A DNA stretch of 64,000 nucleotides, taken from NCBI GenBank assembly GCA_012521755.1, contig JAAYLV010000001.1:2014-66013 (forward strand). The letters are read 5' to 3'. The DNA comes from Bacillota bacterium. Lineage in GTDB: Bacteria > Bacillota > Limnochordia > JAAZLZ01. Every line of letters starts with the position of its first letter. Within the stretch, counting starts at the first letter, position 1. The notes under the pieces were generated by a model. The model ran no database searches. It saw only the letters and a program-made list of their open reading frames with translations, and was not told the DNA's origin. Positions 8,330 through 57,431 of the stretch are shown here, in pieces. The position numbers were made by a program, and so were the translations under genes.

Positions 8330-8571
8330 AGGAAATCAACTGGGAAGAAATAGGCTTTGAAGAAGCCTGCGAATTGTTAGAAGAGGTTGTGCGGCTGCTG
8401 GAAAGCGGCGAAACAACCCTGGAAGAATCCCTGGCCTTATTTGAACAAGGAATCAAATTGGTGCGTTTCTGCAACGAGTGTTTGGACAAGGCGGAAGGAA
8501 GAATTAGGGTGCTTGTGGATGAGGGTTTTGGCCCTGAACTTCGGGATCTTGCCCAAGGAGGAGTGGGATGA
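8326..8571 (+). CDS. xseB: Exodeoxyribonuclease VII small subunit
   Basis: 81 aa helical protein; overlaps the xseA stop. Confidence 0.9.
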   Translation: MKEINWEEIGFEEACELLEEVVRLLESGETTLEESLALFEQGIKLVRFCNECLDKAEGRIRVLVDEGFGPELRDLAQGGVG

Positions 8572-9455
8572 AGGTGAAGGATCTTAAGCAGTATTCGCAA
8601 AGCCGGGCGCAGTTGATCGAAAAGGCCCTTGAAGAGTATCTGCCCGGCGATGATGTCGTGCCAGAGATCTTGCACCGTTCCATGCGCTATTCCACTTTGG
8701 GCGGAGGCAAACGTCTGCGGGGCATTCTAGCCCTTGCTGCTGCCGAGATGGCCGGGGGTTCGAGGGATACGGCCCTGCCTTTGGCGGCGGCCTTGGAGAT
8801 GATTCATGCTTTCTCCTTGATCCACGATGATTTGCCCTGCATGGATGATGACGATTGGCGACGGGGCAAGCCTTCGAATCATAAGATGTTCGGCGAAGCC
8901 ATCGCCCTCCTGGCCGGCGATGCCTTGCTGACCAGGGCCTTCTATTTGCTTACTCGCCTTGCCCTGCCCGGCGATGTGGTGGTCAATATCGTTGCCGAGG
9001 TGGCCCAGGCCGTTGGGAGCGAAGGATTGATCGGCGGCCAGGTGGTTGACCTCCAGTCGGAGGGCAAGCAGGTGGATAGGGCTACCTTAGAGTACATTCA
9101 TTGCCATAAGACTGGGGACCTGATTGCTGTCGCTTTGCGAACGGGCGCCATGGTTGGGGGAGCAGGGGAGGAGCTGCTTGCTTCCTTGACGGCCTATGGC
9201 CGGGAGCTTGGCCTTTTGTTTCAGATCACTGACGACATCTTGGATGTGGAAGGCGATGCGGACAAGCTCGGCAAACCAGTTGGCAGCGATGTAAGCCATG
9301 GCAAGGCGACCTATCCGGCACTATTTGGTATGGAAAAGGCGAAAGAGGCTGCTCAGGCCGCAGCTGCCAATGCGTTAGCGGCCGTTGCGGGCTTAGGTGA
9401 GGAGGCGTGGCCCCTGCGCGAGCTTATCGACTATATCTTGCACAGGGACAGATGA
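8568..9455 (+). CDS. ispA: (2E,6E)-farnesyl diphosphate synthase / polyprenyl synthetase
   Basis: First aspartate-rich motif IHDDLPCMDDDDWRRGKP and second motif FQITDDILD. Confidence 0.9.
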   Translation: MKVKDLKQYSQSRAQLIEKALEEYLPGDDVVPEILHRSMRYSTLGGGKRLRGILALAAAEMAGGSRDTALPLAAALEMIHAFSLIHDDLPCMDDDDWRRGKPSNHKMFGEAIALLAGDALLTRAFYLLTRLALPGDVVVNIVAEVAQAVGSEGLIGGQVVDLQSEGKQVDRATLEYIHCHKTGDLIAVALRTGAMVGGAGEELLASLTAYGRELGLLFQITDDILDVEGDADKLGKPVGSDVSHGKATYPALFGMEKAKEAAQAAAANALAAVAGLGEEAWPLRELIDYILHRDR

Positions 9456-9469
9456 GCCGGGAAACGTGG

Positions 9470-9509
9470 TTGCTTGCGGGGTTTGGGGCTGTGTGTTATA
9501 ATACAGCTA
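9470..9509 (+). promoter_or_regulatory. Sigma-A-type promoter (TTGCGG-17-TATAAT) driving the non-coding region downstream of ispA
   Basis: ttgcttgcggggtttggggctgtgtgTTATAATac. Near-identical architecture to the promoter in front of the ileS T-box. Confidence 0.45.
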
Positions 9510-10130
9510 CACCAAACAGTGGGCCGGCGCAGTATTCTAGTCGGCGCGGTTGCCTTTGAAGACGGGCCTAAAAATCCGTTAAGGGCACATCGATGAAGTC
9601 CCTGGTGGTGGCCGCCGAAGCCCAGTCGGGGGCTGTTGCTGGGGGTTAAGGAAATGGGGGCGATCTACAAAGGCATGTAGGCGTTGACCCCCTTTCCGCG
9701 GAGACCCAAGTTCGTGGCTATCGGTTACGGCTTGGGTAGAACCTGCACGCGATGCATCAACTGTCTTGGCAGTACTTAGCGTTGGGTGCAGCGTAGCCTG
9801 CCCTGAGTGGGGTGGTCGGATAGCAGGGTACAAGAAGGGTTCAGCGGCCGTAGAACCTGATCTTGATTTGGACTGCTTGAAAGCCATCTTGCAAAAGGGG
9901 CTAGAAGGCAATTAGCGTCGTTGAGGAAAACTCCTAGACTGTTTCCGGTGGATGGCACGTTGGGGATTGCGATGTGAGCTAAGTGGTGATCTAGCTCTGT
10001 TCTTGGCGACAGAACAGGCAGGCCGTAAAGGGGAAACCGCCAAGATGGCAACATCTTCGGAAGGCCTGTGGGAAAACCTGCTGGACCTGAAGCCACAATC
10101 TTTACTCAGCGTGCTGCCGGCCCATACATA
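9510..10130 (+). ncRNA. ole: Candidate OLE (ornate large extremophilic) RNA; 3' boundary approximate
   Basis: About 600 nt, GC-rich, dense in inverted repeats, no credible ORF on either strand. It has its own promoter and sits between ispA and a 4-TM membrane protein followed by dxs, the canonical OLE locus in anaerobic and extremophilic Firmicutes. Confidence 0.6.
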
Positions 10131-10776
10131 CCCTAAGGAGGCGGTGTTCCTTTCCTTGGGCGATCCGAATTTTCGCTCACAGATACGGCGGTTCTTAGCC
10201 GTCGGCGTAGCGACCTTTTTTTTATCAGTGGTCATTTCACTGGGGAGTCAAACCCTTCTCACCGTCTTTACCCTCTTCCCCGCCATGATTCTGCTCCTGG
10301 TCATCGTCGGACTAGGGATCATTTTTGACATCATCGGTGTTGCTGTCACCGCCGCGCGGGAAGAGCCCTTCCACGCCATGGCCGTTGACCGGGTTTCCGG
10401 CGCACAGCACGCTGTCCGCCTCATCCGCCATGCTGACAAGGTAGCCAATTTTGCCAACGATATGGTCGGTGATGTAGCCGGCACCCTCAGCGGAGCCGTG
10501 GCAACGGCAGTGGTGATGCGCTTGCTCCTGTTGCTGCCAGGACTGAAAGAGCCGGTAGTGACCACTTTGCTGGTGGGGCTGATTGCCGCCTTGACCGTTG
10601 CCGGCAAAGCTTGCGGCAAGGTGATTGCGTTGAAATATGCTGATGATATCGTCCTTGCTGTCGGCAGGCTCCTTTATTGGTTGGAGAAGGGCACCGGGAT
10701 TGCCATCTTAGGGAAGAATAATCGACGGTCCAAGAACAACAAGGGCCGGAAGCGGAAAGGGAAACGAGGCGACTAA
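10045..10776 (+). CDS. oapA: OLE-associated protein A-like 4-TM membrane protein (true start possibly GTG 10144 or TTG 10153, after the AAGGAGG at 10135-10141)
   Basis: Four predicted TM helices and a basic Lys/Arg-rich C-terminal tail. Sits between the structured RNA and dxs. Confidence 0.55.
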   Translation: MATSSEGLWENLLDLKPQSLLSVLPAHTYPKEAVFLSLGDPNFRSQIRRFLAVGVATFFLSVVISLGSQTLLTVFTLFPAMILLLVIVGLGIIFDIIGVAVTAAREEPFHAMAVDRVSGAQHAVRLIRHADKVANFANDMVGDVAGTLSGAVATAVVMRLLLLLPGLKEPVVTTLLVGLIAALTVAGKACGKVIALKYADDIVLAVGRLLYWLEKGTGIAILGKNNRRSKNNKGRKRKGKRGD

Positions 10777-10777
10777 C

Positions 10778-12628
10778 ATGGCTCGATTATTAGACGCGGT
10801 CAATTCACCCGCCGACTTGAAGGCCTTAACTTCCAGCCAGCTGAACCAGCTGGCGGAGGAAATACGGCAGGAGATCATCAGCACTGTCTCCTCTTGCGGG
10901 GGGCACTTGGCGGCCAATCTCGGCGTAGTAGAATTGACGATTGCCCTCCACAGCATTCTCGACAGTCCCCGGGACAAGATCATATGGGATGTGGGGCACC
11001 AGACTTATGCCCATAAACTCCTGACGGGACGACGGGATCGGTTTGCTTCACTCAGACAGTATGGCGGCATTAGCGGGTTTCCCCGTCGAGGGGAAAGTCT
11101 CCACGATATCTTTGGTGCCGGCCACAGCAGCACCTCCATCTCCGCGGCGTTGGGCCTAGCCGAGGCCCGGGACCTGTCCGGGGAAGATTACCGCGTGGTA
11201 GCCGTCATCGGTGATGGCGCCCTGGGGGCAGGACTCGCCTTTGAAGCCCTAAATCACGCTGGACACCGGGGAACGGATCTACTGGTGATCCTAAATGACA
11301 ATGAAATGTCTATTGACAAGAACGTTGGGGCCCTTGCCCGCTATCTTACCCAGCTGCGGATGGACCCCACTTTGTATAAGGCAAGGACAGAGCTGGAAAA
11401 CTTGCTGAAGCAAATCCCTGCCTTTGGTGGGATTGTCCACCGAGTTGTCGACAAACTCAAGGACGCCCTAAAGCAGGTCCTTGTCCCAGGGATGTTTTTT
11501 GAAGAGCTGGGGTTCTCTTATTACGGACCATTGAACGGCCATGACATCGGGTTGTTAAGATGGGGGCTACGGGACGCCTTGGCCATGAAAGGTCCGGTGC
11601 TCTTGCATGTGGTGACCACTAAGGGCAAGGGACATCCTTTAGCGGAGCGCAATCCCAAACGATACCATGGCATCGCGGCCGCATCATCTGGCGATAATGG
11701 CCGGTCTAATAGTCAGGTCTTTGGCGAAATGCTCTGTCGGCTGGCGAAGGAGGACGACCGGATTGTGGCCGTTACCGCCGCGATGGCGGAAGGGACGGGC
11801 TTGAGCCGATTCCAGGAACAGTTTCCCGATCGCTTCTTCGATGTGGGCATTGCCGAACAGCATGCCCTGGTGTTGGCGGCAGGACTGGCCGTCGGGGGGA
11901 AGCGGCCGGTCGTAGCTATGTACTCAACTTTCCTGCAGAGGGGATACGACCAGCTCATCCATGACATTTGCCTGCAGGAGCTGCCGGTGGTATTGGCCAT
12001 CGACCGAAGCGGTCTAGTCGGAGAAGACGGTCCCACCCACCACGGAGCCTTCGATCTATCCTTCCTGCGGATTATCCCTGGTCTGGTCATCATGGCGCCT
12101 AAGGACGGGAAGGAACTGGAAGACATGTTAGCCTGGGCCGTTACCCATGAAGGCCCCGTCGCCATTTGCTACCCTCGCGGGAGTCTACCTCCCCTCGGAC
12201 ATGAAGAGCCTATCCTCCTCGGCCGGGGGCAAAGGCTGCGGACGGGGAAGGACCTCAATTTCATTACCATCGGCTCCATGGTAGGACCTTGTCAGGGGGC
12301 AGCCGAACTCCTGGCCCGGCGAGGCATCGATGCGGGGGTGGTCAATGCCCGTTTCGTCAAACCGCTCGATGTGGACTTGATTGAGAATACGCCGGGCTAT
12401 CTGATTACCGTTGAAGAGAACGTCTTAATGGGCGGATTTGGCAGCGCCGTCCGGGAATTCCTCCCCGATGGCAGGCTCATCGGTTGCATCGGCCTGCCTG
12501 ATGTTTTTGTTGAGCACGGACCTTGCCCTGTTCTCCACGAAAAGTATGGGCTGACGCCGGAGGCGATTAGCGCCTATGCCCAAAAGGCCTTTTCTCTCGC
12601 CAGGGAGGGGAGGAAGTCCCTTGGCTAA
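10778..12628 (+). CDS. dxs: 1-deoxy-D-xylulose-5-phosphate synthase
   Basis: 616 aa, TPP-dependent transketolase-like (GHSSTSISAALG, GDGALGAG motifs). Confidence 0.95.
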   Translation: MARLLDAVNSPADLKALTSSQLNQLAEEIRQEIISTVSSCGGHLAANLGVVELTIALHSILDSPRDKIIWDVGHQTYAHKLLTGRRDRFASLRQYGGISGFPRRGESLHDIFGAGHSSTSISAALGLAEARDLSGEDYRVVAVIGDGALGAGLAFEALNHAGHRGTDLLVILNDNEMSIDKNVGALARYLTQLRMDPTLYKARTELENLLKQIPAFGGIVHRVVDKLKDALKQVLVPGMFFEELGFSYYGPLNGHDIGLLRWGLRDALAMKGPVLLHVVTTKGKGHPLAERNPKRYHGIAAASSGDNGRSNSQVFGEMLCRLAKEDDRIVAVTAAMAEGTGLSRFQEQFPDRFFDVGIAEQHALVLAAGLAVGGKRPVVAMYSTFLQRGYDQLIHDICLQELPVVLAIDRSGLVGEDGPTHHGAFDLSFLRIIPGLVIMAPKDGKELEDMLAWAVTHEGPVAICYPRGSLPPLGHEEPILLGRGQRLRTGKDLNFITIGSMVGPCQGAAELLARRGIDAGVVNARFVKPLDVDLIENTPGYLITVEENVLMGGFGSAVREFLPDGRLIGCIGLPDVFVEHGPCPVLHEKYGLTPEAISAYAQKAFSLAREGRKSLG

Positions 12629-16663: not shown

Positions 16664-17959
16664 ATGGTGCGGCGAAACAGATTTCTTACTTATCTGTGGT
16701 GGGGGCTTCTTATTTGTTTCTTCCTCATCGGCATCCAGGTGCATCTGTTAAATGCCTTGCCTAAACATTTGCGTGTTCTTCCTGGGGACAGCCTGAACCT
16801 TCGCCTGTTCCCGCCTTACACCCTTGTCTCTCCTGCGGAAAAGGACTTCATTCAAATCTCCGAAGGAAATCTAGAAATTGGTCCGACCAGCCCCGATCAG
16901 GCCAGTCTGCTCATCAGCCTGTGGGGAATGCCGGTTCGGGAGATGGTGGTGGAGGTCGTCCCGGAGCTGAAGGTCATGCCGGGGGGACAGGCAATCGGGG
17001 TCTTGTTGGCCCCCGCGGGCTTGATTGTGGTGGATCATATACCTCTTCTCGGCACCGATGGCAAAGAGTACTATCCCGCCCAGGAAGCAGGGATTCGGCA
17101 TGGTGACATCCTGCTGAAATTAAACAATGCGACCATCTACAATCCTGACCAGTTGCGGTTCATGGTCGAGCGATCCGGGGCTTTAGGTCAGGAACTGGAT
17201 GTTGAGCTGCTGCGCAATGGACAGGTGATTCGGACCCGCATCAGGCCGGTTGAGGTCGGCAGAAATGGAGGGCGCAGTCCGAGCTTCCTCTTGGGGCTGT
17301 GGCTGGAGGATCCCGCTGCCGGTGTGGGGACTCTAACCTTCTATGATGAGCGGACAGGGCGGTACGGTGCTCTGGGCCACATGATCACCGATGCGGCTAA
17401 TCGTCGGATTCAGGTTAACCGGGGTCATATAGTCCAAGCTCAGATCTCGGGGGTGCAAACGGGCCTGCGGGGACGACCGGGGGAGAAAATTGGCATCTTC
17501 CAAGATGAACGCGATGTGGTTGGCACCATCGACAAGAACACCCGCTTCGGCATCTTTGGCAAGCTCCACGTCCTACCTGGCAACAACTATTATCGAGAGC
17601 CAATACCAGTTGCTTTGGCCCATCAAGTCAAAAAAGGTCCGGCGGAAATCCTGACAGTGTTGGAAGGCGAAAAGGTGGAGCGCTTCGCTGTGGAGATCAT
17701 CAAAGTCAATAGGCAGCGGCGGCCTGATGATAAGGGGCTTGTCATCCAGATAACTGACAGCCGTCTCCTAGAGCGAACGGGCGGCATCATTCAAGGGATG
17801 AGCGGCAGTCCCATCATTCAAGATGGACGTCTAGTCGGAGCGGTCACCCATGTCTTCATCAGCGATCCAACTAGGGGATTTGGCATCATGGCCGAGTGGA
17901 TGCTATACGAATCCGGCATTGGCGACACGCAGATAGGCAATCCTCCCAGGACAGCTTGA
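16664..17959 (+). CDS. spoIVB: SpoIVB peptidase (S55) with PDZ domain
   Basis: 431 aa with N-terminal TM, PDZ domain and serine peptidase domain (GTLTFYDERTGRYGALGH, ITDSRLLERTGGIIQGMSGSPI). Confidence 0.9.
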   Translation: MVRRNRFLTYLWWGLLICFFLIGIQVHLLNALPKHLRVLPGDSLNLRLFPPYTLVSPAEKDFIQISEGNLEIGPTSPDQASLLISLWGMPVREMVVEVVPELKVMPGGQAIGVLLAPAGLIVVDHIPLLGTDGKEYYPAQEAGIRHGDILLKLNNATIYNPDQLRFMVERSGALGQELDVELLRNGQVIRTRIRPVEVGRNGGRSPSFLLGLWLEDPAAGVGTLTFYDERTGRYGALGHMITDAANRRIQVNRGHIVQAQISGVQTGLRGRPGEKIGIFQDERDVVGTIDKNTRFGIFGKLHVLPGNNYYREPIPVALAHQVKKGPAEILTVLEGEKVERFAVEIIKVNRQRRPDDKGLVIQITDSRLLERTGGIIQGMSGSPIIQDGRLVGAVTHVFISDPTRGFGIMAEWMLYESGIGDTQIGNPPRTA

Positions 17960-18295
17960 CTACTTGTGTTTCTCCCTGCCCGCGGGCTCGCTAAGCCCCA
18001 GGACGTTATCCGCGGGCAAAGTAAAGATGATCCCTTTCCCTGGTTCGTGGAATTTGCCGGCTTCGACCAGCACATCGTAAATGGGACGGTATGCGTCTCG
18101 CGGCGACACAATTAGAATGACTTCTTTAGAGGATTCAATATGTAGATTAAGGAGTTTAGGAGCTTCAAAGACTCCAGTTCCCCGTCCATACAAGATAGTC
18201 CCGCCGAGCAGGCCTGCTTCCTTGGCCTTCTCTACTAGTCCCTGAGCTTTGCCCCGCTCGACGACCGCGATAATCGCTAAGTAATCCATCGACAA
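17960..18295 (-). CDS. P-II-like (GlnB superfamily) small regulatory protein
   Basis: 111 aa with P-II-like topology (GGTILYGRGTG loop). Directly downstream of a DUF1538 membrane protein, a recurrent pairing. Confidence 0.5.
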   Translation of the reverse strand: MSMDYLAIIAVVERGKAQGLVEKAKEAGLLGGTILYGRGTGVFEAPKLLNLHIESSKEVILIVSPRDAYRPIYDVLVEAGKFHEPGKGIIFTLPADNVLGLSEPAGREKHK

Positions 18296-18415: not shown

Positions 18416-19123
18416 CTACAAGAACCTGCTCAAGATCCCGAGGGACAACACCGACAGGATTGTCCCCATGGATGTCAAGCCAACGATGCCGAATCCAGCG
18501 AGCAACGGGTCAGTGACCTCAAGCATGCTCGCTAATCCTATGGCCAGGGCCATGTTAATCGGGATATTAACCGGCCCGGTAGTGGCGCTGGCACAATCCA
18601 TGGCGATGGCGACGAACTGTTCCGGTGCGAGCCGAATCAAGACCAGGAATAGGATCAGAATCGGCGTGATGATGGTTCTAATTGGAATGTTGTTTAGTAT
18701 CTTCAAGATCCCCATAGCCATGCCCAAACCGAAACCAAAGGCTACAGCGTGGACCAATACATTGTAAGGGATAGCACCTACCGATATTTCTTCGACTTCC
18801 AGTGCCAGAATTCTCAGTGCCGGCTCCACCAAAGTGCCAAAGTAGCCCAGGACAAAAGCAAATAGGGCTATTGCCAGCTTATTGTCGAGGACAACCAAAT
18901 CACGTCCAAGGGAGTCGCTCATGGGCAATAAGCTCATTGACGCCCCCTTGATGAAAAAGTGCAGCCCCAAGATACTCAGGACGATGCCGCCGATGAAGGT
19001 CTTCGGGTTCTCGGGACTATGCTTAAGGAAGAATGTCTTGAAGCCGACCATGAAAAGCGTAATTGGGAGAACGGTCTTGGCTGTTCCCCACAACGGCTTT
19101 AGCTGCTCTAAGAATCCCATCAC
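18416..19123 (-). CDS. DUF1538-family integral membrane protein
   Basis: 235 aa with about 6-7 TM helices; pattern typical of DUF1538 proteins that pair with P-II-like genes. Confidence 0.5.
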   Translation of the reverse strand: MMGFLEQLKPLWGTAKTVLPITLFMVGFKTFFLKHSPENPKTFIGGIVLSILGLHFFIKGASMSLLPMSDSLGRDLVVLDNKLAIALFAFVLGYFGTLVEPALRILALEVEEISVGAIPYNVLVHAVAFGFGLGMAMGILKILNNIPIRTIITPILILFLVLIRLAPEQFVAIAMDCASATTGPVNIPINMALAIGLASMLEVTDPLLAGFGIVGLTSMGTILSVLSLGILSRFL

Positions 19124-19336
19124 TTTCCTCCTTCTATCTTCCTTAGGGACAACATATATATTCTCCTCCGAAAGGGATATCCCTTCTCCTGCCTGGACAA
19201 GCTGTTGTGAGAACTCTCGAAACCACCCATTTGTTAACAGCAGGAATGGGAATTGGGGCCACGAAGGAAGTAGTACCCCAAAATGAACTTTAATAAGCTT
19301 ACTTGGAACAAGAAGGATGGGAGAAGGTGACTGCAG

Positions 19337-19987
19337 GTGAAAAAGCCCTTGATCGGAGCATTGGCAGCAGTACTAATCCTTGCGGGAGCAGCTGGAGCGA
19401 CCACCTTGGGCGGTGGCGTGGGTTGGACAAAGGCAACGGCCGAGCATGGGGAAGAGTCAAGCTTGGAAGAACGGGCCTGGGTTTTCGATGGGAACGTCGA
19501 CTTGGGTCTGCTCAGGCTTGGCGGCAGCTACCTGATGCTGATGGATGAGAAAGAAAATCCCCAGGCCGACTACACCATGTACGCCGGCGGCGTTGAATTG
19601 CGACTCCCCTTAGGGCCTCTGCCTTTGAAGGCTTATGTTGGTGGCGGATACACAGGCGAGGACCTGTCCTTTGGGTCGGCTAAGATCGAAGGGGAGGGCT
19701 TCTTTGTCGGCGGACGGGCCTTAGCTGACTTGGACGGCGTCCTTCTCGAGGGCTACTATCAGCACTCGCCTCGCTTTTCGTGGGTTGAGACAACCGATGG
19801 CGGGGAAGTGGAGGGTGAAGCCGTCATGGCCCGGTACGGTGCCAGTTTGCGATTTCCCGTCCTTTGGCCCCTCAACATCGTCATCGGGTACAAAGGCGGC
19901 ACCCTTGAGCCCGGGGATGATTATCAAGGTGAACTGAAGAAGGTCCAGACCAATGTTTTCACCGCGGGAGGCGCCATTTCTTTCTGA
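19337..19987 (+). CDS. Secreted beta-barrel-like protein (OmpW/porin-like; C-terminal ...GGAISF)
   Basis: Signal peptide, then alternating hydrophobic/polar beta-strand dyads (KAYVGGGYTG, NIVIGYKGGT, NVFTAGGAISF) and a C-terminal Phe. Confidence 0.4.
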   Translation: MKKPLIGALAAVLILAGAAGATTLGGGVGWTKATAEHGEESSLEERAWVFDGNVDLGLLRLGGSYLMLMDEKENPQADYTMYAGGVELRLPLGPLPLKAYVGGGYTGEDLSFGSAKIEGEGFFVGGRALADLDGVLLEGYYQHSPRFSWVETTDGGEVEGEAVMARYGASLRFPVLWPLNIVIGYKGGTLEPGDDYQGELKKVQTNVFTAGGAISF

Positions 19988-20012: not shown

Positions 20013-20056
20013 AGTGCAGGCGGGAAGGCGCTGGTGGCTTTCCCGCCTGCACCTGT
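20013..20056 (+). terminator. Rho-independent terminator
   Basis: gtgcaggcgggaaggcgctggtggctttcccgcctgcac followed by ctgtattt. Confidence 0.55.
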
Positions 20057-20130
20057 ATTTAGGGGAGGAACTGTTGAACCCCGATAATTGGAGGGATAGG
20101 TATTTGTAGAGCTAACACTTTTTATAGAAG

Positions 20131-20159
20131 TTGACATAATTGATCGGCGTATCTACAAC
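20131..20159 (+). promoter_or_regulatory. Candidate sigma-A (Pv-like) promoter of spo0A: TTGACA-17-TACAAC
   Basis: Hexamers read from the sequence. Confidence 0.3.
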
Positions 20160-20162
20160 ATC

Positions 20163-20202
20163 TCGACAGTATTGGCAGGAATTGTGCTGAAAAGTGCCGA
20201 AT
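20163..20202 (+). promoter_or_regulatory. Candidate 0A box (TGTCGAg on the minus strand) plus sigma-H (Ps-like) promoter GCAGGAATT-12-GCCGAAT upstream of spo0A
   Basis: Matches the sigma-H consensus RNAGGAWWW-n11/12-RNNGAAT. The 0A-box-like heptamer sits immediately upstream, as in B. subtilis spo0A. Confidence 0.4.
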
Positions 20203-20251
20203 ATGATCCCAGAAGGCCCATGGGAGAGAATCTTACCCAGAAGGTGATCCA

Positions 20252-21013
20252 ATGCCGACAAGGTTGCTGGTGGCGGACGATGATCGGGGATTTTGTCAGC
20301 AGATAGCTGAGGCTATTGCCTCCGATCCTAAGTTGGAGCTCCTCGCTATTGTCCATGATGGCAAGAGCGTCTTGGAAGTGCTCCACAGGGAAACGCCGGA
20401 TGTTTTGCTATTAGACCTGGTTATGCCCGAGCTAGATGGAATCGGCGTCCTCGAGGAGATTCAAAGGGATCGTCGAGAGTTGAGGATTCTCGTCATGTCC
20501 GTGTTTGGCCAAGAAGAGATCCTGAGCCGAGTGCTTTCCCTTGGAGCTGACTACTTCATGGTGAAGCCCTTTGATGTCAAGCTGCTTTTGCAGCGAGCCA
20601 AAGAATTGACCCAGGGATCGCGGTTTTATGATGGTCAAGCTTATAATCGTAAGAGCAATCACTTGGAGGCGGAGATCGTTCGGCAGTTGATCCAGTGCGG
20701 CGTACCTGCCCACTATAAGGGCTATGCTTACCTTAAAGAAGGAATCATGCGGGTCATTCAAGACGGGAGCCTGATCAACCGCGTGACCAAGGATCTTTAT
20801 CCGAGCATAGCGCGGGAGTTTAATACCACTGCGGAAAAGGTGGAAAGGGCCATTCGCCACGCGATCGAGACGGCCTACGTACGGGGAAACATCGAGTTTC
20901 TCAACGAAGTCTTTGCCTACACCGTTGACTCCCAAAAGGGCAAACCGACCAATTCTTCCTTTATCGCCACGTTAGCCGACAGAATTCGACTGGGAATTAA
21001 AGTGGCGGAATGA
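20252..21013 (+). CDS. spo0A: Sporulation master regulator Spo0A
   Basis: Receiver domain (LLVADDD..., LLLDLVMPELDG) and the Spo0A-specific C-terminal domain (RVERAIRHAIE..., NSSFIATLADRIRLG). Confidence 0.95.
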   Translation: MPTRLLVADDDRGFCQQIAEAIASDPKLELLAIVHDGKSVLEVLHRETPDVLLLDLVMPELDGIGVLEEIQRDRRELRILVMSVFGQEEILSRVLSLGADYFMVKPFDVKLLLQRAKELTQGSRFYDGQAYNRKSNHLEAEIVRQLIQCGVPAHYKGYAYLKEGIMRVIQDGSLINRVTKDLYPSIAREFNTTAEKVERAIRHAIETAYVRGNIEFLNEVFAYTVDSQKGKPTNSSFIATLADRIRLGIKVAE

Positions 21014-21088
21014 CGGGTGAACCATCGCGGCATACTATCGCTAGAAGGGGCCGGCATGGCCCCTTTAGCGCGTTATGGAGGTGCTTCG

Positions 21089-22210
21089 ATGGCCATCCGG
21101 GGTATTGCCAGGGTGGACAAGAGGACCAAAGGCCTGGTGAAACGTCTCCAGCCTGGGGAGATCGCGGTGATCGCCCATCGGGATATCGACGAGGTGGCTG
21201 CGGAAAGCCTGATCCGCTGTGGAGTCAGGGCCGTCGTCAATGGCGATGAGTCGATCACGGGTCGCTACCCCAACCCTGGTCCCTTGCATCTGTTGCGGGC
21301 AGGCATCCCGGTCTTGGATAAGGTGGGACTCTCGGCCATCGAGGCCATCAAGGATGGCGACAGCGTAGAAATCCGTGACAACCGACTCTTGGTGGGGGGC
21401 CGGGTGGTTGGCCTTGGGCAGATGCTATCCCTAGACATGGTAATGGAAAAGATGGCCATGGGCCGCAGGAATTTGCAGGAAGAGCTGCGACGATTCGCCG
21501 CGAATACCCTCGTTTATGCTTGGAAGGAAAAAGATGCGATCTTAGGGCGGATTCCGCTGCCGCCCATCAAGACTTCTTTGCAGGGAAAGCACGCCCTTAT
21601 TGTCGTCAGAGGGGCGCGGGCAAAGGAGGACCTAATAGCTATTCGTTCGTACATCGACGAGGTTGAGCCCGTCCTCATTGGGGTGGATGGGGGCTCCGAC
21701 ATCTTGGTGGAACTTGGCTATCGGCCCCATTTGATCGTAGGTGACATGGATAGCGTCAGCGACACCACCCTAAGGAAAGGAGCGGAGCTGGTGGTCCATG
21801 CTTATCCCGATGGGCGGGCTCCGGGGCTGCGCCGCATACAAGAACAAGGACTTAAGGCCCACGTACTGCCCCTTCCCGGCACAAGCGAAGATGTCGCGAT
21901 GCTCCTTGCTTACGAAAAAGGAGCTGCTTTAATCGTTACGGTGGGGAGCCATTCGAATATGATCGACTTCCTCGAGAAAGGGCGGCGGGGGATGGCCAGC
22001 ACTCTCCTGGTAAGACTGAAGGTGGGGGAAATCTTAGTGGATGCTAAGGGAGTCAGCAAGCTTTACCGGGGACGGCCCCGCATTGGATATGTCTTCTCCC
22101 TTGGCTTGGCAGCTTGTGTTCCGGTGATGATCCTCCTGTTGCTATCGGATTCTCTGCGCCAAGTTGGGCGCTTCCTGCTTCTGGTGCTGAGGGTAATGCT
22201 TGCCAGGTAG
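21089..22210 (+). CDS. steA: SteA-like putative cytokinetic ring protein (thiamine-pyrophosphokinase-like domain); longest ORF from 21017
   Basis: N-terminal ARVDKRTKGLVKRLQPGEIAVIAHRDID, TPK-like HLIVGDMDSVSD, C-terminal membrane-associated helix. ATG 21089 has a GGAGGTG RBS. Confidence 0.55.
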   Translation: MAIRGIARVDKRTKGLVKRLQPGEIAVIAHRDIDEVAAESLIRCGVRAVVNGDESITGRYPNPGPLHLLRAGIPVLDKVGLSAIEAIKDGDSVEIRDNRLLVGGRVVGLGQMLSLDMVMEKMAMGRRNLQEELRRFAANTLVYAWKEKDAILGRIPLPPIKTSLQGKHALIVVRGARAKEDLIAIRSYIDEVEPVLIGVDGGSDILVELGYRPHLIVGDMDSVSDTTLRKGAELVVHAYPDGRAPGLRRIQEQGLKAHVLPLPGTSEDVAMLLAYEKGAALIVTVGSHSNMIDFLEKGRRGMASTLLVRLKVGEILVDAKGVSKLYRGRPRIGYVFSLGLAACVPVMILLLLSDSLRQVGRFLLLVLRVMLAR

Positions 22211-22222
22211 AGGAGGGGGGCC

Positions 22223-22957
22223 TTGCTAATTGATCTACGCTACCATTTGGGGTCACTAGTGGCGGTCTTCTTAGCCTTAGGCATCGGCATTCTGATCGGC
22301 TACAGCCTATTTGGCCAGGAAGGCTTTCTGGATAAGCAGCAGCAACAGCTTGTGGACGAACTGGAAGTCCGTTTCCTTCGGCTAAAGGACGAACGGGAAC
22401 AACTGGAGGCCAATCTGGCTAGGCTGGCCCAGGAACTAGAACGAGACCGGGATCTGGTTCGGTCCATCCAGCCCCTTCTCATTAAGGACAGGTTGGCAGG
22501 GAGAAATATACTGCTGGTGGTGACTGGAACCGCGGCAGATAAAGACTGCATCGCACAGGTTGCGGCCGGCCTTCGCGAGGCGGGGGCCAACGTTACTGAA
22601 GTCATCCACCCTCGAAAAGAGAAGGGGGAAGAAAGCATCGTGGACTTGGTTGCCCCTGGCACAGATCCCCAAGCTCGTCAATCAGTTGATGGGGTGGTGT
22701 TGATAGGTGGAGCCTTGGCGGGGGAGGGGACCTTTCAAGAAATCGATCGGCCCCTCATCGAAGCCCTGTTTCCGAGGCGGATACTAGTAGTTGGCGCTGA
22801 GCCTTTCGGCGCCCCAGTTTCCTACGCAAAGGACTATGAGCGAATGTCCATTCCTATGGTAGATAACGTCGATACCCCGGCGGGACTAATCAGCCTGGTG
22901 TTTTTATTATCGGCCGGAGAAAACTCCGAGGCGGCAGCGGCAATGGGGGTGGGCTAA
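22223..22957 (+). CDS. steB: SteB-like membrane-anchored protein (copper-transporter family annotation in databases)
   Basis: N-terminal TM, long coiled coil, C-terminal alpha/beta domain. Immediately downstream of steA-like. Confidence 0.5.
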   Translation: MLIDLRYHLGSLVAVFLALGIGILIGYSLFGQEGFLDKQQQQLVDELEVRFLRLKDEREQLEANLARLAQELERDRDLVRSIQPLLIKDRLAGRNILLVVTGTAADKDCIAQVAAGLREAGANVTEVIHPRKEKGEESIVDLVAPGTDPQARQSVDGVVLIGGALAGEGTFQEIDRPLIEALFPRRILVVGAEPFGAPVSYAKDYERMSIPMVDNVDTPAGLISLVFLLSAGENSEAAAAMGVG

Positions 22958-22960
22958 GGA

Positions 22961-23629
22961 TTGGTTTCGGTGCTGATGCCGGCCCTCAATGAAGAAGCTA
23001 GGATCGAGGCATCGGTGTCTGCAGCCCTCGCCATCCCCCAGGTCGATGAGGTGATCGTGATCGATGACGGTTCCGTCGACGAAACGGGGGACCTGGCAGC
23101 AAAGGCGGGGGCCGAGGTCATTCGTCTCCAGCGGAATCTGGGGAAGGGAGGGGCCTTGAATGCCGGTTTGAGGCGAGCGCGGGGCGATGTCATCTTGACC
23201 TTGGATGCCGATTTGGGCGTCAGTGCTTTAGAAGGGGCCAAGCTCCTGGCTCCCGTCCTTGCTGGACAGGCCCACATGACGGTGGGGGTCTTTCCCCGAT
23301 TGGGGAAGGGAGGCGGCTTTGGCCTCGCCAAGGGCCTGGCAAAACGGGGGATCTTGCTGTTGACCGGCCAGCAGCTGCGCGAACCCCTATCGGGTCAACG
23401 GTGCCTACTGCGGGAGATATTGGACCGATGCAACGGATTTGCCGCGGGGTTTGGTGCAGAGGTGGGGCTGACCATCGATGCTCTGCGGCTGGGATACCGG
23501 GTGTTGGAGGTGGAAGTAAACATGGACCATGCGCGCACTGGCCGGAATCTGACCGGCTTTCGCCACCGGGGCCGGCAGTTCTGGCATATCTTCTTGGCTT
23601 TGGCCGCCCGCGTTGGTGATCGGATGTGA
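22961..23629 (+). CDS. Family 2 glycosyltransferase (dolichyl/polyprenyl-phosphate sugar synthase-like)
   Basis: SVLMPALNEE...VIVIDDGSVD..., TLDADLG. Confidence 0.75.
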   Translation: MVSVLMPALNEEARIEASVSAALAIPQVDEVIVIDDGSVDETGDLAAKAGAEVIRLQRNLGKGGALNAGLRRARGDVILTLDADLGVSALEGAKLLAPVLAGQAHMTVGVFPRLGKGGGFGLAKGLAKRGILLLTGQQLREPLSGQRCLLREILDRCNGFAAGFGAEVGLTIDALRLGYRVLEVEVNMDHARTGRNLTGFRHRGRQFWHIFLALAARVGDRM

Positions 23630-24426
23630 TCCTGGCGGTCATGCTCCTTGGGGCCCTTGGGACGCTTTGGCCTCTAAGAGGCCTTGCGGAATTGGCCCGG
23701 GAAGGATTTCTTCGCCGGGCCAACTTTCGCGGTGAGCTCGTCCCGACGGGGATGGGAGTCTCCTTCTTGCTTGGCTCCTCCCTTGGTCTCGTCGGGGGCC
23801 TTTGGCTGGGCGTCTATGGAATCCAGGATGCGCTCCTCTTAACCACTGTGTTGTTTGGCTTTGGCTTTTTGGGCCTAGTCGACGATCTTTGGGGCGATCA
23901 TGCCCATCGCGGCCTTGGGGGCCATCTTCGCGTCGCCTTGCAGGGGAAGGTCAGCACGGGGCTTTTGAAAGCCGTTTACGGTGGCCTTTTAGCCCTAGGA
24001 GCAGCGCTGTTCAGCGGGGGTAAAGAAGGGCTCTTGGTTAACGCCTTGATCATCGCCTTAACGACCAATACCCTAAACCTCTTGGACCTCAGGCCTGGAC
24101 GCTGCGGCAAGGCCTTCCTGCTAGGATCTCTACTCCTCTTTTGCATCGGGGAGACTAGCGCCTTGAGGCAGCTGCTGCCCGTCATCGGCGGAGTCCTCGC
24201 CTACCTCCCGTGGGATATGCGGCGAGTTGTGATGATGGGCGATGCCGGGGCTAATCCCCTAGGAGCCTTGCTGGGCATTGGCATCATCGGTCTTGCAGGG
24301 CCCATGCGGGCCTTTAGCCTCCTGCTGTTGATTGGCATTCACCTCTACAGCGAGAAGTATTCTCTCTCCCGCTTGATTGATGATAATCCGGTATTGCGTT
24401 TCTTGGACAAGCTGGGGTGCGATTAG
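23626..24426 (+). CDS. Short MraY/WecA-family (glycosyltransferase family 4) polyprenyl-phosphate sugar-phosphotransferase-like membrane protein
   Basis: Motifs GLVDDLWG, NTLNLLDLRPG and MGDAGANPLGA. Only 266 aa, shorter than MraY/WecA. Confidence 0.55.
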   Translation: MILAVMLLGALGTLWPLRGLAELAREGFLRRANFRGELVPTGMGVSFLLGSSLGLVGGLWLGVYGIQDALLLTTVLFGFGFLGLVDDLWGDHAHRGLGGHLRVALQGKVSTGLLKAVYGGLLALGAALFSGGKEGLLVNALIIALTTNTLNLLDLRPGRCGKAFLLGSLLLFCIGETSALRQLLPVIGGVLAYLPWDMRRVVMMGDAGANPLGALLGIGIIGLAGPMRAFSLLLLIGIHLYSEKYSLSRLIDDNPVLRFLDKLGCD

Positions 24427-24476
24427 CAGGAAAAAGCCCAAAGAAGGCGAACATCCCCGTAAGGGGGTGAAAAGCG

Positions 24477-25067
24477 TTGCACCGGTTGGTCCTCTTGTTG
24501 CTGTCCATCGGGCTCTTTACCTCGCCGGCAGCTGCGGATGTTGAAGTGTACACCGTCAAGCCGGGGGACACGATCTACGCAGTGGCTCGGATACTGCAGG
24601 TCCATCCCAAGGAAATCATCGCCCTAAACAGCCTCGATGATCCTGATCTGATCGGTGTGGGCATGCAGCTGAAGGTGCCTTCGGGAGCACCGGAGCGCCC
24701 GCCAAGGGAGGTCACCCCCGAGGAGTTGGAATTGATGGCTAAAGTGATCTATGCTGAGGCCCAGGGCGAGCCGGAACTAGGTCAATTAGCGGTGGGAAGG
24801 GTCATCGTCAACCGGCTCCGCGACCCTAGTTTTCCCGATACGATCACTGACGTCATCTACCAGCCGGGCCAATTCCTTCCGGTCGAATCGGGGCTGCCCG
24901 AGACAGTCCCGGCGAAGTTTGTGGAGTTGGCCAAGAGGGCCTTTTCCGAAGAAGACCCAACCTATGGCGCCCTGTTTTTCTACAACCCCCACAAGACCAC
25001 CAGACCCGATTTTTGGGCTACCAGGACCAAGCTGGTCACCATCGGCAATCACGTCTTTGCCCGCTAG
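24477..25067 (+). CDS. LysM-domain cell wall hydrolase, SleB-like (Hydrolase_2)
   Basis: Signal peptide, LysM (YTVKPGDTIYAVARIL), then SleB-type domain (VIYAEAQGEP...GRVIVNRL...PGQF...FFYNP). Confidence 0.8.
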   Translation: MHRLVLLLLSIGLFTSPAAADVEVYTVKPGDTIYAVARILQVHPKEIIALNSLDDPDLIGVGMQLKVPSGAPERPPREVTPEELELMAKVIYAEAQGEPELGQLAVGRVIVNRLRDPSFPDTITDVIYQPGQFLPVESGLPETVPAKFVELAKRAFSEEDPTYGALFFYNPHKTTRPDFWATRTKLVTIGNHVFAR

Positions 25068-30042: not shown

Positions 30043-31311
30043 ATGTGGTATCAGCGGGTCCAATTGTTTCTGTACACCGGCATCATCTTGTTATTGTTAG
30101 CAAGTCCAGGAAGAGTGAACTTCGGTGTGCGTATGGAATGGGAGGAGGGTTTGCTCCGCCCGATTCTCCACTATGGCCGGGTGGGCTCCTTGACCCACGT
30201 AGAAGCAGAGTTGGGGCGAAAGTCCCAGGAGGAGTGGGGGCTATTGTCCGGGCGACTTGGAGTGGCGCCTGGCAATTGGAGTTTGCGGCTGATGTACAAT
30301 GATGAACATATCAGCTTCACCGATCCCTTCCGGATGGTGACGAAAGGCGTTCGCCGCGAGGATAGTTGTGGAGGAGTGCTGGTAGGGGATGTTGGCCGAC
30401 AACGGTTTGTCGGCCTTTATGTGCGTGACTTTCCCTATCCCCGCCGCACGGGCCACTTGGCAGGGACCCAATGGGAGTGGCGGGGCGATGGGCTTCACTT
30501 GGGCTGTGCCGGCATCGCCCAGCACCTGGAGGCGGACTGGTACGCGTGGATGTATAATGTCTACGCTCGCGCCCTCCTTGGCAAGCTGGAACTTGGGGGA
30601 GCTATCGGCAAGATCAACAGGGACGGTGAAGATGGGGCAGGTCTGGCTACCTTCCGCTATCCCACTTCTTGGGGTCACGTTTCCTGGACTTATCAACACA
30701 TCGGGGAAGGATGGCGATCTTGGGCCAACTGGGAAGATCCCTATCGGCGGGACAGGCGGGGTTCGACCGTGGGGATTCGCTGGCGCCACGATCGCTGGGG
30801 CCGGGTATTGCTCGAAGTTAAGCGGCTCACCGATCTGGCGGGTGTGCAAAGGGATGAAGGAATGGTCCTCGATTACTTGGGGTGGAAGATCCGGGACTGG
30901 CGCTGGCGGGTGCGCTTTGAAGATCGCAATGGTCAACATCGCCTAGAGACGGAAGCTTATCGCGGTCCTTGGAGCTGCGCTTTCGTGGCGGTGGAGCAGG
31001 CGGCGGGATGGGATCGGCGCGTCCGCGTCCGGGGGAAGATCCTTCCCTGGCTGTCCGCGGCAGTGGGATTTCAAGAGTTGGAAAGACGTTGGCGGCTTCA
31101 GCTTGACCTGCAAGTGAAGGAATGGACGGTGCGGGGGATTGGCAAGGTCCGGCAGCGGGAAGATAAGAACCGCTATTACTACCTGCGGGCCGCGCGGGAG
31201 TTTGGACGGAGCCAGGTATTCCTGGAGCTTGGACGCTACGACCGGGGTCGGCTCGATGCTTACTGGGTTCCCGAAAAAACAGTCAACTTGGGTTGGGAGA
31301 TATCCTTTTGA
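30043..31311 (+). CDS. Hypothetical Trp/Arg-rich secreted protein, beta-barrel-like (C-terminal ...NLGWEISF)
   Basis: Signal-peptide-like N-terminus, very high W/R/G content, alternating-strand patterns, C-terminal Phe. No recognisable family. Confidence 0.4.
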   Translation: MWYQRVQLFLYTGIILLLLASPGRVNFGVRMEWEEGLLRPILHYGRVGSLTHVEAELGRKSQEEWGLLSGRLGVAPGNWSLRLMYNDEHISFTDPFRMVTKGVRREDSCGGVLVGDVGRQRFVGLYVRDFPYPRRTGHLAGTQWEWRGDGLHLGCAGIAQHLEADWYAWMYNVYARALLGKLELGGAIGKINRDGEDGAGLATFRYPTSWGHVSWTYQHIGEGWRSWANWEDPYRRDRRGSTVGIRWRHDRWGRVLLEVKRLTDLAGVQRDEGMVLDYLGWKIRDWRWRVRFEDRNGQHRLETEAYRGPWSCAFVAVEQAAGWDRRVRVRGKILPWLSAAVGFQELERRWRLQLDLQVKEWTVRGIGKVRQREDKNRYYYLRAAREFGRSQVFLELGRYDRGRLDAYWVPEKTVNLGWEISF

Positions 31312-38854: not shown

Positions 38855-39844
38855 ATGCGAAACAAGAGTTTTGTCGTAGCTTTGGCTCTATGGTTGGTTC
38901 TTGCGATGGCCATTGGTGTTGCTGCGCAGCCGATCCCCATCAGCGTCTATTGTATCTTAGCCAGATCATCGGTTAGTACGGAAGCCATGTTTCGCTTCGC
39001 CGAGATGGTAGAAGAACGAACCAATAACAAAGTAAAATTCGACTGCTACCATAGTGGTGAGTTGGGCGGCGATGTGGAGACCATTGAAGCTATGCGCCTT
39101 GGAACAATTGACATGCGCATGGCTGGCGTAGGTCTCCATTCCCATTTCTATCCCGAGTCCATGCTGCTGGAGCTTCCTTTCTTGTTTAAGGACAGGGCCC
39201 ACGTGCAAAGGTTCATCTACAGCGATGCCGGGCGGAAGTTTATGGATGGCTTCGAGCAGTACGGAGTGAAGTGTCTGACCATCTACGATATCGGATTCAG
39301 GAATATCAGCAATTCGAAACGGCCCATCAATCATGTTGATGATGTTCGGGGCATCAAGATCCGGGTGCCGGAAATCGATACGTACGTAAAAGTATGGGAG
39401 AAGTTCGGCGCTGCTCCGGTCGCCATGGCTTGGCCGGATGTGTACATGGCGTTGAAGACAGGTGTCCTTGACGCCCAGGACAATGCGCCAGAACACACAT
39501 ACACTAACAAGACACATGAGACCCAGAAGTACTATAGCGTCATCAACTACATCTGGATGGGCGGCGCCCTGACCATGAACCTGAACAAGTGGAACAGCCT
39601 GCCGAAGGATGTGCAGGAAGTGATGCTTGAGGCGGCTAGGGAAATCTCCGAGTGGACCTTTGCTGAGCTGGCGGCCAAGGACGAGTGGGCCCTCGAGCAG
39701 ATGGAGAAAGAGGGTCTAGAGATCAATCGTTCTCCCGACATCGAAAGCTTCCGGGCGAAGGTTGCCGACCTGTACGACGAACTTGCCAAGGAATCGTGGT
39801 ACGATCCTGAAGTCATTGCGGCTATCCGTGCGGTAGAGAACTAG
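38855..39844 (+). CDS. dctP: TRAP transporter substrate-binding protein (DctP family), locus 1
   Basis: 329 aa, signal peptide, DctP-family periplasmic-binding fold. Confidence 0.8.
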   Translation: MRNKSFVVALALWLVLAMAIGVAAQPIPISVYCILARSSVSTEAMFRFAEMVEERTNNKVKFDCYHSGELGGDVETIEAMRLGTIDMRMAGVGLHSHFYPESMLLELPFLFKDRAHVQRFIYSDAGRKFMDGFEQYGVKCLTIYDIGFRNISNSKRPINHVDDVRGIKIRVPEIDTYVKVWEKFGAAPVAMAWPDVYMALKTGVLDAQDNAPEHTYTNKTHETQKYYSVINYIWMGGALTMNLNKWNSLPKDVQEVMLEAAREISEWTFAELAAKDEWALEQMEKEGLEINRSPDIESFRAKVADLYDELAKESWYDPEVIAAIRAVEN

Positions 39845-39849
39845 GTCCG

Positions 39850-39878
39850 TAGGTCGCGGCGGGTCCCGCCGCGACCTC
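39850..39878 (+). promoter_or_regulatory. Intra-operon 11-bp perfect stem-loop between dctP and dctQ
   Basis: gtcgcggcggg tcc cccgccgcgac; no U tract follows. Confidence 0.4.
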
Positions 39879-39899
39879 GCCCCGAGGGAGGGAAGGTAA

Positions 39900-40400
39900 G
39901 TGCTACGGGCGCTAAACAATGCAATCGATCGGATTCTGACGTACCTATGCAGCATCTGCCTTATCACCATCGTTGTGGTCTTTCTCATCGAGGTCTTGTT
40001 CCGCTACATTCTGAAAATCTCCTTCGCCTGGTCCTTGGAAGTCAACAGGATAGCCTTCATTTGGATGTGTCTCATGGGGGCAGCCATGTCACTGCGGAAG
40101 AGGGGACATATCAGGTTTGAGATCATCATCGGCCGACTCAAGTCGCGCCCCGAGGTCTTGATGAGCCTGTTTTGCGATGTCCTAGCTCTGGCCTTTTTCC
40201 TGTTCTTGTTGAAGGAAGGTTATACCGTTTACAATCTTGCTAGGATGACGAAGTTCCCGACTCTGCGCATTTCACAGGGTTGGATGTTCGCGGCTTTGCC
40301 CTTGAGCGCCGTGGTCATGCTCATTTACACTATCGAGCTGGTACTGAACGATGTGGCAAAGCTCACGGCTCCAACTCGGGAGGGACATGAAGCCATCTAA
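39900..40400 (+). CDS. dctQ: TRAP transporter small permease (DctQ), locus 1
   Basis: 166 aa, 4 TM; GTG after GAGGGAGGGAAGG. Confidence 0.75.
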   Translation: MLRALNNAIDRILTYLCSICLITIVVVFLIEVLFRYILKISFAWSLEVNRIAFIWMCLMGAAMSLRKRGHIRFEIIIGRLKSRPEVLMSLFCDVLALAFFLFLLKEGYTVYNLARMTKFPTLRISQGWMFAALPLSAVVMLIYTIELVLNDVAKLTAPTREGHEAI

Positions 40401-40431
40401 TGGACATACCAGAAAGGAGGCGTGACAGGAA

Positions 40432-41706
40432 TTGCTGACCACACTAGTTGTCGCTTTTGTTTTCTTCGCTCTCATCGGTATGCCAATCGCCATATCTCTT
40501 GGTATTGCAAGTGCTCTTGCTTTAGCCTTTAGCCCATTTCCAACTGTGGCTGCTGTCCAGAAGTGGCTAACTGGGATTGATTCTTATACATTGTTGGCGA
40601 TCCCCCTGTTCATCCTCGCCGGCCAGTTGATGAACGTGGGAGGAGTAACCTATCGCATCTTCAATTTTGCTCAGGCCCTGGTTGGTCACATACCTGGAGG
40701 TCTGGCCCACGCGAATATTGTAGCCAGCATTATCTTTGCTGGGATGTCAGGTTCGGCCGTGGCCGATGCGGCGGGCTTGGGCCTGGTGGAGATGGAGGCG
40801 ATGACCTCCCATGGTTATGATGAACGCTTTTCCGCGGCGGTTACCGCAGCATCCTCGGTGATAGGGCCCATCATTCCACCTAGTATTCCGATGCTGTTGT
40901 ATGCTTCCATTGCCGAAGAGTCAGTGGGCAAGCTGTTCCTAGGCGGCATCATCCCCGGTTTGATGATGGGGATCTCGATGATGCTCCTTGTCTATTTCCT
41001 CGCGCTCAAGAGGGGTTATCCCAAAGAAGAGCGGGTTCGCCTGCGCCAATTGGCCGCCATTTTCATCGATACACTGCCGGCCTTGCTCAGCCCAGTCATC
41101 ATCATCGGGGGCATGTTGACAGGCATATTCACGGCGACGGAGGCCGCGGCGGTGACTGTCGGGTATGCTTTTGTCCTGTCGGCCTTTGTTTATCGGGAGC
41201 TAAAGCTGAAAGACGTGCCGGCCATGCTCCTCGACACGGTGTATAGCACTGCCGTCGTTACGTTCATCTTGTCTGCTGCCGCCGCAGCCGGTTGGATACT
41301 GGTTAGGAGCAGGGCCGGCCATGCAATGGCTGACTTTGTCCTGTCGGTGACGTCAAACCGATATGTCGTCCTATTACTGCTCAATATCTTGCTGCTGCTG
41401 CTAGGGTGCGTGATGGAATTAGGTGCGATCATGATCCTAACGGTGCCCGTTCTCATCCCACTTCTGCAGAACCTAGGCATCGACTTAGTGCACTTTGGCG
41501 TAGTCATGACCGTGAATCTGATGATCGGCTTCATCACCCCGCCCTTTGGCATGTCCTTGTTTGTCCTCAGCGGCGTAACGGGGCTGAAGGTTGAAGAAAT
41601 AGTCAAAGACACGATGCCTTTCCTCATTCCCTTAATAATCACTTTGTTGTTGATCACTTATATTCCCGGCTTGGTGATGGCCATACCCAACTGGCTGATG
41701 CCATAA
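40432..41706 (+). CDS. dctM: TRAP transporter large permease (DctM), locus 1
   Basis: 424 aa with conserved GGLAHANIVASIIFAGMSGSAVADAAG. Confidence 0.85.
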   Translation: MLTTLVVAFVFFALIGMPIAISLGIASALALAFSPFPTVAAVQKWLTGIDSYTLLAIPLFILAGQLMNVGGVTYRIFNFAQALVGHIPGGLAHANIVASIIFAGMSGSAVADAAGLGLVEMEAMTSHGYDERFSAAVTAASSVIGPIIPPSIPMLLYASIAEESVGKLFLGGIIPGLMMGISMMLLVYFLALKRGYPKEERVRLRQLAAIFIDTLPALLSPVIIIGGMLTGIFTATEAAAVTVGYAFVLSAFVYRELKLKDVPAMLLDTVYSTAVVTFILSAAAAAGWILVRSRAGHAMADFVLSVTSNRYVVLLLLNILLLLLGCVMELGAIMILTVPVLIPLLQNLGIDLVHFGVVMTVNLMIGFITPPFGMSLFVLSGVTGLKVEEIVKDTMPFLIPLIITLLLITYIPGLVMAIPNWLMP

Positions 41707-52828: not shown

Positions 52829-52849
52829 GGACTTGAAGGAGGAGGAGTC

Positions 52850-57401: not shown

Positions 57402-57431
57402 TCCTCCACAGGAAGGGGCGGCGGCCCGCCC

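Follow-up and report, generated by a model that had tools for sequence, protein, structure and literature searches.

Limnochordia, Negativicutes and Halanaerobiales are central to the debates over a two-membrane ancestor of the Bacillota and over the survival of the outer membrane through endospore formation. To our knowledge, descriptions of Limnochordia outer-membrane proteins are very few. Within the phylum, Limnochordia, Negativicutes and Halanaerobiia are listed as the diderm classes (PMC11448272). In Limnochordia, an outer membrane has been seen by electron microscopy in Geochorda and Carboxydochorda (PMC11456536), and an outer-membrane gene cluster is reported for 46 of 46 uncultivated genomes, mostly from digesters or anaerobic mud (Taib et al. 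2020, as given in PMC11456536). The title of Watanabe et al. 2016, a paper that PMC11456536 and PMC11448272 both cite, calls Limnochorda pilosa a spore-former that is Gram-negative. Here, we analysed a 64,000-nucleotide stretch of a Bacillota genome (assembly GCA_012521755.1, contig JAAYLV010000001.1, positions 2,014 to 66,013 of the forward strand), hereafter the window, and within it a gene at positions 19337-19987 (+) that lies directly upstream of spo0A. Our results lead us to conclude, with a probability of roughly 0.8, that the product of this gene is a small, monomeric protein in the outer membrane of a diderm Bacillota that forms endospores, most likely a member of Limnochordia. The gene thus adds a predicted 10-stranded barrel with a canonical C-terminal β-signal, and it fits the recognition rules of the β-barrel assembly machinery (BAM) being those at work in Limnochordia.

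The open reading frame (ORF) is intact, running from a GTG start to a TGA stop and specifying 216 residues. A ribosome-binding site, GGAGAAGGTG (19320..19329, +), can be read 7 nt 5' of the start codon; the relatives of the gene have GGAGGTGA at this position. Compared with three orthologues of about 77% identity, the differences at codon positions 1, 2 and 3 number about 37, 23 and 68, with 56 codons changed synonymously and 49 non-synonymously. Judged by these substitution patterns, 19337-19987 is a real gene under purifying selection, and its annotation as the coding sequence of a 216-residue predicted outer-membrane β-barrel draws on the codon-position pattern, on the orthologues and on a distant homologue, P0004. 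Residues 1-21 (19337..19399, +) read as a typical Sec signal peptide, with an MKK start, a hydrophobic core and an AXA cleavage site (AGA|T), the N-terminus being MKKPLIGALAAVLILAGAAGA|TT. P0004 has ASA|N at the aligned position, the structural model described below places a low-confidence helix over residues 4-18, and the signal region of the window protein has no lipobox Cys. The mature protein of 195 residues contains 17.5% Gly and 11.4% Phe, Tyr and Trp, is free of Cys and has a net charge of -14. It ends in TAGGAISF (19961..19984, +), which corresponds to the β-signal pattern polar-x-G-x-x-hydrophobic-x-Phe.

Patterns of this kind are known from substrates of BAM and of the sorting and assembly machinery (SAM). 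Among the 278 ORFs of at least 60 residues in the window, polar-x-G-x-x-hydrophobic-x-[FWY] at the very C-terminus occurs in two, namely the barrel gene and the ORF at 30043-31311. The signal is retained in all four members of the family, as TAGGA[IVL]SF and TIGAAVSF. The AlphaFold2 model, built from a four-sequence alignment that includes P0004, has a predicted local distance difference test (pLDDT) score of 74.9 and a predicted template-modelling (pTM) score of 0.71; it shows the signal helix followed by ten long antiparallel strands, with tight hairpins between them. The inclusion of P0004 raised the mean pLDDT to this value from 32, obtained with three near-identical sequences. The mature domain (19400..19984, +) is accordingly predicted to form ten strands (residues 23-37, 40-55, 59-70, 74-90, 97-112, 115-132, 135-153, 156-176, 179-192 and 200-215) with short periplasmic turns and five acidic extracellular hairpin tips. 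When the model was compared with known structures by Foldseek, the top 15 matches were all outer-membrane barrels, and those with ten strands scored about twice as high as those with eight.

The membrane character of the strands can also be assessed from the sequence, assuming a periplasmic N-terminus and taking the ten periplasm-proximal residues of each strand. Over whole strands, the hydrophobicity of the faces was uninformative; the signal appeared after each strand had been split into a membrane-proximal and a distal half. In the membrane halves, the out-facing face is 70% hydrophobic or aromatic and a further 22% Gly, with polar or charged residues at just 2 of 50 positions. Shuffled sequences had 8.0 +/- 1.9 polar residues on the same face, and only 3 of 2000 shuffles were as low as the observed value. 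P0004 keeps the pattern (1 of 50). In the distal halves, polar or charged residues make up 38%, and each of the five hairpin tips is acidic. These results bear directly on the original prediction, made from the sequence alone, which had pointed to a signal peptide, a Gly- and aromatic-rich mature part and a C-terminal ...AISF, and had taken them together as the signature of a BAM-inserted outer-membrane barrel. The three features are indeed present in the sequence, the terminal residues fit the β-signal pattern and are conserved in the homologues, and structure prediction, run as a check, returned an outer-membrane-type barrel rather than a soluble fold.

The family to which the protein belongs is very small, comprising four 90%-identity clusters among 5.8 billion. 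Orthologues of the window protein, found in metagenomes and metagenome-assembled genomes (MAGs), are 77-79% identical. The distant homologue P0004 (287 residues) is 34-40% identical and was detected with a profile E-value of 2.7e-32. A HMMER search of 1.84 billion 50%-identity representatives produced four matches, two of which are real family members; the others, P0005 (3923 residues) and P0006 (1558 residues), are Ig-like repeat proteins that match through repeated words of the "...AEGAISF" type and were rejected as homologues. Further searches started from P0004 and from the four-sequence profile (E <= 10) yielded no new family members. The window protein itself has no match to the Pfam family PF13505 (OMP_b-brl), and P0003 reaches only a sub-threshold 19 bits; P0004, however, scores 38.4 bits, above the threshold of 28.7, and covers the whole profile. 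The window protein is therefore tied transitively to the outer-membrane barrel clan. Its own best Pfam match is Porin_4 (PF13609), at 17.2 bits against a threshold of 27 and over profile positions 195-273. A Gram-negative porin of this type was considered and rejected, as the mature window protein has 195 residues and ten strands against 16 strands and about 300 residues or more. A search of PDB sequences with the profile and with P0004 gave chance matches only (a portal protein, a capsid protein and a toxin component). The group is best described as a very narrowly distributed new sequence family inside the known outer-membrane barrel superfamily.

What kind of cell carries such a gene is suggested by the relatives of the neighbouring proteins. 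Spo0A and RNase J of the window fall into 90%-identity clusters with proteins of "Limnochordia bacterium" MAGs (MGI6558999.1, MGI6035922.1 and MGI6559024.1), and the closest genomes are MAGs of about 2 Mb and 57% G+C from anaerobic digesters. A scan of GTDB genomes found only two MAGs, both assigned no further than the phylum and given as "Firmicutes sp." in Campanaro et al. 2020. Of the two explanations originally offered for a barrel protein in a sporulation gene block, a diderm spore-former or an unusual use of barrels in the outer layers of a monoderm spore, the first is favoured by these Limnochordia-labelled relatives of at least 90% identity together with the published Limnochordia outer membranes, and given a diderm host the second is not needed. 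Limnochordia is also among the three diderm lineages that the original prediction had named. In such a lineage, a gene for an outer-membrane barrel amid many sporulation genes is to be expected. Taken by itself, the possession of an outer-membrane protein is ordinary for a diderm bacterium, and the gene may be seen as an ordinary consequence of the envelope of its host.

The position of the gene deserves closer consideration. The window at large is a classic Bacillota backbone, in which spoIIIAE-AH, accBC, xseA, ispA, dxs, an FtsJ-type methyltransferase gene, the NAD kinase gene, argR, recN and spoIVB come first, and spo0A, an M16 peptidase gene, dapB, dpaAB, asd, dapA, the RNase J gene, divIVA and ileS follow. 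The barrel gene had been placed between spoIVB and spo0A. Both flanks are confirmed, with SpoIVB at 16664-17959 (TIGR02860, 2.6e-124) and Spo0A at 20252-21013 (+; TIGR02875, 1.3e-83), although two genes on the strand opposite to the barrel gene, a P-II-like gene (17960-18295) and a DUF1538 gene (18416-19123), intervene on the spoIVB side. In all close relatives the barrel gene is directly upstream of spo0A. The same is true of P0004, encoded on a contig of a low-G+C organism, whose next neighbour is 55% identical to the Spo0A of the window. Hence the adjacency has been retained across a deep split, at which the barrel proteins are 34-40% identical. The genes on the other side differ, being TctCBA upstream of P0004 and DUF1538, P-II and spoIVB in the window. 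Directly downstream of spo0A, at 21017-24426 (+), lie genes for a SteA-like protein, a MctB-family protein, a GT2 glycosyltransferase and a GT4-family (MraY/WecA-like) transferase, and this arrangement is kept in relatives. The SteA/MctB pairing is better known from Actinobacteria and is unusual beside spo0A. One record (L007; FZPS01000137.1, GCA_900198705.1; 1.28 Mb) has barrel-spo0A flanks unlike those of L008-L011: upstream of the pair lie ABC-transporter genes, and downstream a split SteA gene and then PGI. Under this accession, another collection has a contig of 3184 bases (L013), and the record looks concatenated or chimeric rather than like a real rearrangement.

The barrel gene also appears to have its own signals for transcription. 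About 70 nt 5' of its start codon lies a putative sigma-H-type-like promoter motif, GCAGGAAT-N12-CACGAAG (19240..19266, +). The sigma-H consensus of B. subtilis is RnAGGwWW-N11-12-RnnGAAT, and relative to it the -35 element GCAGGAAT matches, while the -10 element CACGAAG has two mismatches. The motif is invariant among close relatives, and a generic sigma-70 scan of the region upstream of the gene found no convincing vegetative promoter. An intrinsic-terminator-like hairpin (20014..20062, +), a 16-bp G+C-rich stem followed by CTGTATTT, begins 27 nt after the stop codon; its predicted RNA fold has an energy of -38.5 kcal/mol (z = -5.85), and the GGCGGG...CCCGCC hairpin is retained in L001 and L006 with different loops. 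As a promoter-like element of its own precedes it and a strong terminator follows, the barrel gene is likely to be monocistronic and not co-transcribed with spo0A. The spo0A gene has a canonical sigma-H-type promoter, GCAGGAATT-N12-GCCGAATAT (20175..20203, +). The whole upstream region (20112-20203, +) presents, in order, a sigma-70-like CTAACA-17-CATAAT with a TG extension, a 0A-box-like CTCGACA and this sigma-H-type promoter, a layout that is kept in L001 and L006. The spo0A gene of B. subtilis has a dual-promoter layout, which the region in the window mirrors.

From the resemblance of the barrel motif to the adjacent spo0A promoter, we infer that expression of the barrel gene would begin as cells pass into stationary phase and sporulation. 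The core motif GCAGGAA-N15/16-CGAA has three copies in the window, where 0.11 would be expected, and none of 100 shuffles reached three. All three copies are intergenic, on the + strand and 5' of + strand genes, these being the barrel gene, spo0A and a gene for a SleB/CwlJ-like spore-cortex lytic protein with LysM and Hydrolase_2 domains (24477-25067); the third copy (24426-24451, +) is directly 5' of the last of these. Two polysaccharide deacetylase genes come after the SleB/CwlJ-like gene. The third copy suggests a small regulon common to the three genes. The same motif is found 5' of the P0004 gene (L003 3125-3150), where one match compares with 0.01 expected in the contig. Conserved adjacency and a conserved motif across the deep split are thus a hint of transition-state or sporulation-onset expression of the barrel gene, and the place beside spo0A together with the common motif suggests a link between envelope composition and the sporulation decision. 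The CGAA element could equally belong to a Spo0A-box-like site.

These observations invite a bolder explanation, namely that the gene belongs to the sporulation-initiation regulon, under the control of sigma-H and/or Spo0A, and that its product is made specifically at commitment to sporulation and resides in the mother-cell-derived outer spore membrane or in the nascent outer membrane of the germinating cell, and not in the vegetative envelope. Were this so, the barrel might equip the mother-cell-derived outer spore membrane, which is believed to turn into the new outer membrane when the spore germinates, and the gene would offer a molecular handle on how diderm spore-formers rebuild their outer membrane. 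The explanation accounts for an adjacency to spo0A that persists in both close and distant relatives despite differing upstream genes, for the motif shared with spo0A and the SleB/CwlJ-like gene, and for the retention of that motif in a distant, low-GC relative. On the other hand, a conserved terminator parts the barrel gene from spo0A, and the entire region is conserved Bacillota backbone, so that the adjacency may simply have been inherited. The motif is a short one with an imperfect -10 element, and sigma-H also drives transition-state genes that have nothing to do with sporulation. On balance, a sporulation-specific role, read as it is from sequence, seems to us unlikely.

Three further explanations concern the fold itself. 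The protein might be a soluble 10-stranded barrel of the nitrobindin, lipocalin or fatty-acid-binding type, secreted or periplasmic, which binds a small ligand. Against such a barrel stand the C-terminal β-signal and the strands themselves, in which one face of each membrane-proximal half is nearly devoid of polar residues; moreover, acidic residues gather in the distal hairpin tips, and the homologue P0004 is above the PF13505 threshold. We therefore regard a soluble barrel as very improbable. Still less probable is an 8-stranded barrel of the OmpW/OmpA/OmpX type. Here our results depart from the original prediction, which had likened the protein to OmpW and OmpA: the model has ten strands, structures with ten strands score about twofold higher than those with eight, and there is no Pfam match to OmpW (PF03922) or OmpA_membrane (PF01389). 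An aspartyl protease of the omptin type (OmpT/Pla), an idea prompted by the top structural match, can be given almost no credence, given that there is no Pfam match to Omptin (PF01278, peptidase A26) even at E <= 10, that identity to these structures is 9-12% and the window protein is about 100 residues shorter, and that the family has no invariant His (in P0004, Trp takes the place of H37 and Tyr that of H143), so that the Asp-His catalytic pair of omptins cannot be conserved.

We thus return to a small monomeric outer-membrane protein as the favoured explanation. By analogy with known outer-membrane proteins, the precursor would be exported by Sec, be cleaved by signal peptidase I after Ala21 (AGA|T) and cross the periplasm unfolded; BAM would then recognize the TAGGAISF β-signal and fold the protein into the outer membrane. 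In the folded protein, the periplasm-proximal strand halves would form a lipid-facing belt of hydrophobic, aromatic and Gly residues, and the distal halves five tight acidic hairpins at the surface. Seven charged residues (D51, R60, E87, R127, D131, E138 and K186) are invariant in the family alignment and would point into the barrel lumen, which is probably closed or plugged, or else very narrow. A charged lumen of this kind favours a surface or structural role, for example in binding a ligand or cations, over bulk diffusion. This suggests a surface or structural protein and makes a general porin or a protease less likely.

Several observations weigh against this assignment. The AlphaFold2 model rests on a four-sequence alignment, two of its five models were poor (pLDDT 42.6 and 29.7), and the three-sequence run reached only the pLDDT of 32 given above. 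The window protein has no above-threshold sequence match in Pfam, NCBIfam or PDB. The Limnochordia label of the near-identical proteins comes from MAG names given by their submitters. No BamA, Lpt or Lpx gene is present within the 64-kb window, the rest of the genome not having been searched. As for expression, the promoter has been assigned by motif alone, with the -10 element CACGAAG off consensus at two positions.

The window contains a second barrel candidate, already named in the original prediction and examined here at the sequence level. It is the ORF at 30043-31311 (+), whose 422-residue product has many Trp, Arg and Tyr residues, a hydrophobic segment at the N-terminus and, at the C-terminus, NLGWEISF, a perfect match to the β-signal. 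It has no Pfam or PDB match, its closest relative found is 84% identical (L012, LSQX01), and it is placed between M16 peptidase/dUTPase-like genes and the dapB-dpaAB-asd block. The two candidates are unrelated in sequence, and phmmer detected no paralogue of the barrel gene within the window. Two RNA elements were also identified. A full-length Ornate Large Extremophilic (OLE) RNA (9508-10136, +; Rfam RF01071, 454 bits, E = 4e-130) is flanked by ispA (8568-9455) and dxs (10778-12628), and the membrane-protein ORF that follows it (9952-10776; weak CNNM match) is probably the OLE-associated protein OapA. The presence of OLE RNA in a probable Limnochordia genome may merit recording. A T-box leader (52587-52808, +; RF00230, 106 bits) is located upstream of the isoleucyl-tRNA synthetase gene (52763-55600), whose listed GTG start overlaps the leader; the true start is therefore probably further downstream. 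As to transport, there are three sets of TRAP (tripartite ATP-independent periplasmic; DctP/DctQ/DctM) transporter genes, at 38855-41706, 55635-58409 (-) and 59012-61893, and on the P0004 contig the TctCBA tricarboxylate transporter adjoins the barrel gene. The organism thus appears to have many uptake systems that rely on periplasmic binding proteins.

Overall, the window protein resembles OpcA, OmpT and the Legionella-type 10-stranded barrels by fold, but belongs to none of these groups by sequence. OpcA, an adhesin of Neisseria meningitidis (PDB 2vdf and 1k24), is 9-11% identical, and the window protein has no match to the Pfam OpcA family. In OpcA, surface loops form a basic crevice that binds proteoglycan, whereas the tips of the window barrel are strongly acidic, and a proteobacterial host contrasts with a Bacillota spore-former. 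The omptins, represented by OmpT, plasmid-encoded pOmpT (7xw0) and Pla, are longer by the margin noted above, and the window protein is not expected to be a protease. The Legionella major outer-membrane protein, "porin I" of the Dot/Icm machine (9nh1_A), is 9% identical, and the window offers no type IV secretion context. With the PF13505 (OMP_b-brl) barrels, the family has in common a signal peptide, a terminal Phe and strands with a dyad repeat, although these barrels typically have eight strands and the window barrel is predicted to have ten. Veillonella OmpM1 (8bys/8bym) is a large trimeric porin barrel with a surface-layer homology (SLH) tether, whereas the window protein is far smaller, has no SLH domain and matches it with a Foldseek template-modelling (TM) score of about 0.24; what the two have in common is the type of envelope, that of a Bacillota with an outer membrane (PMC10628300).
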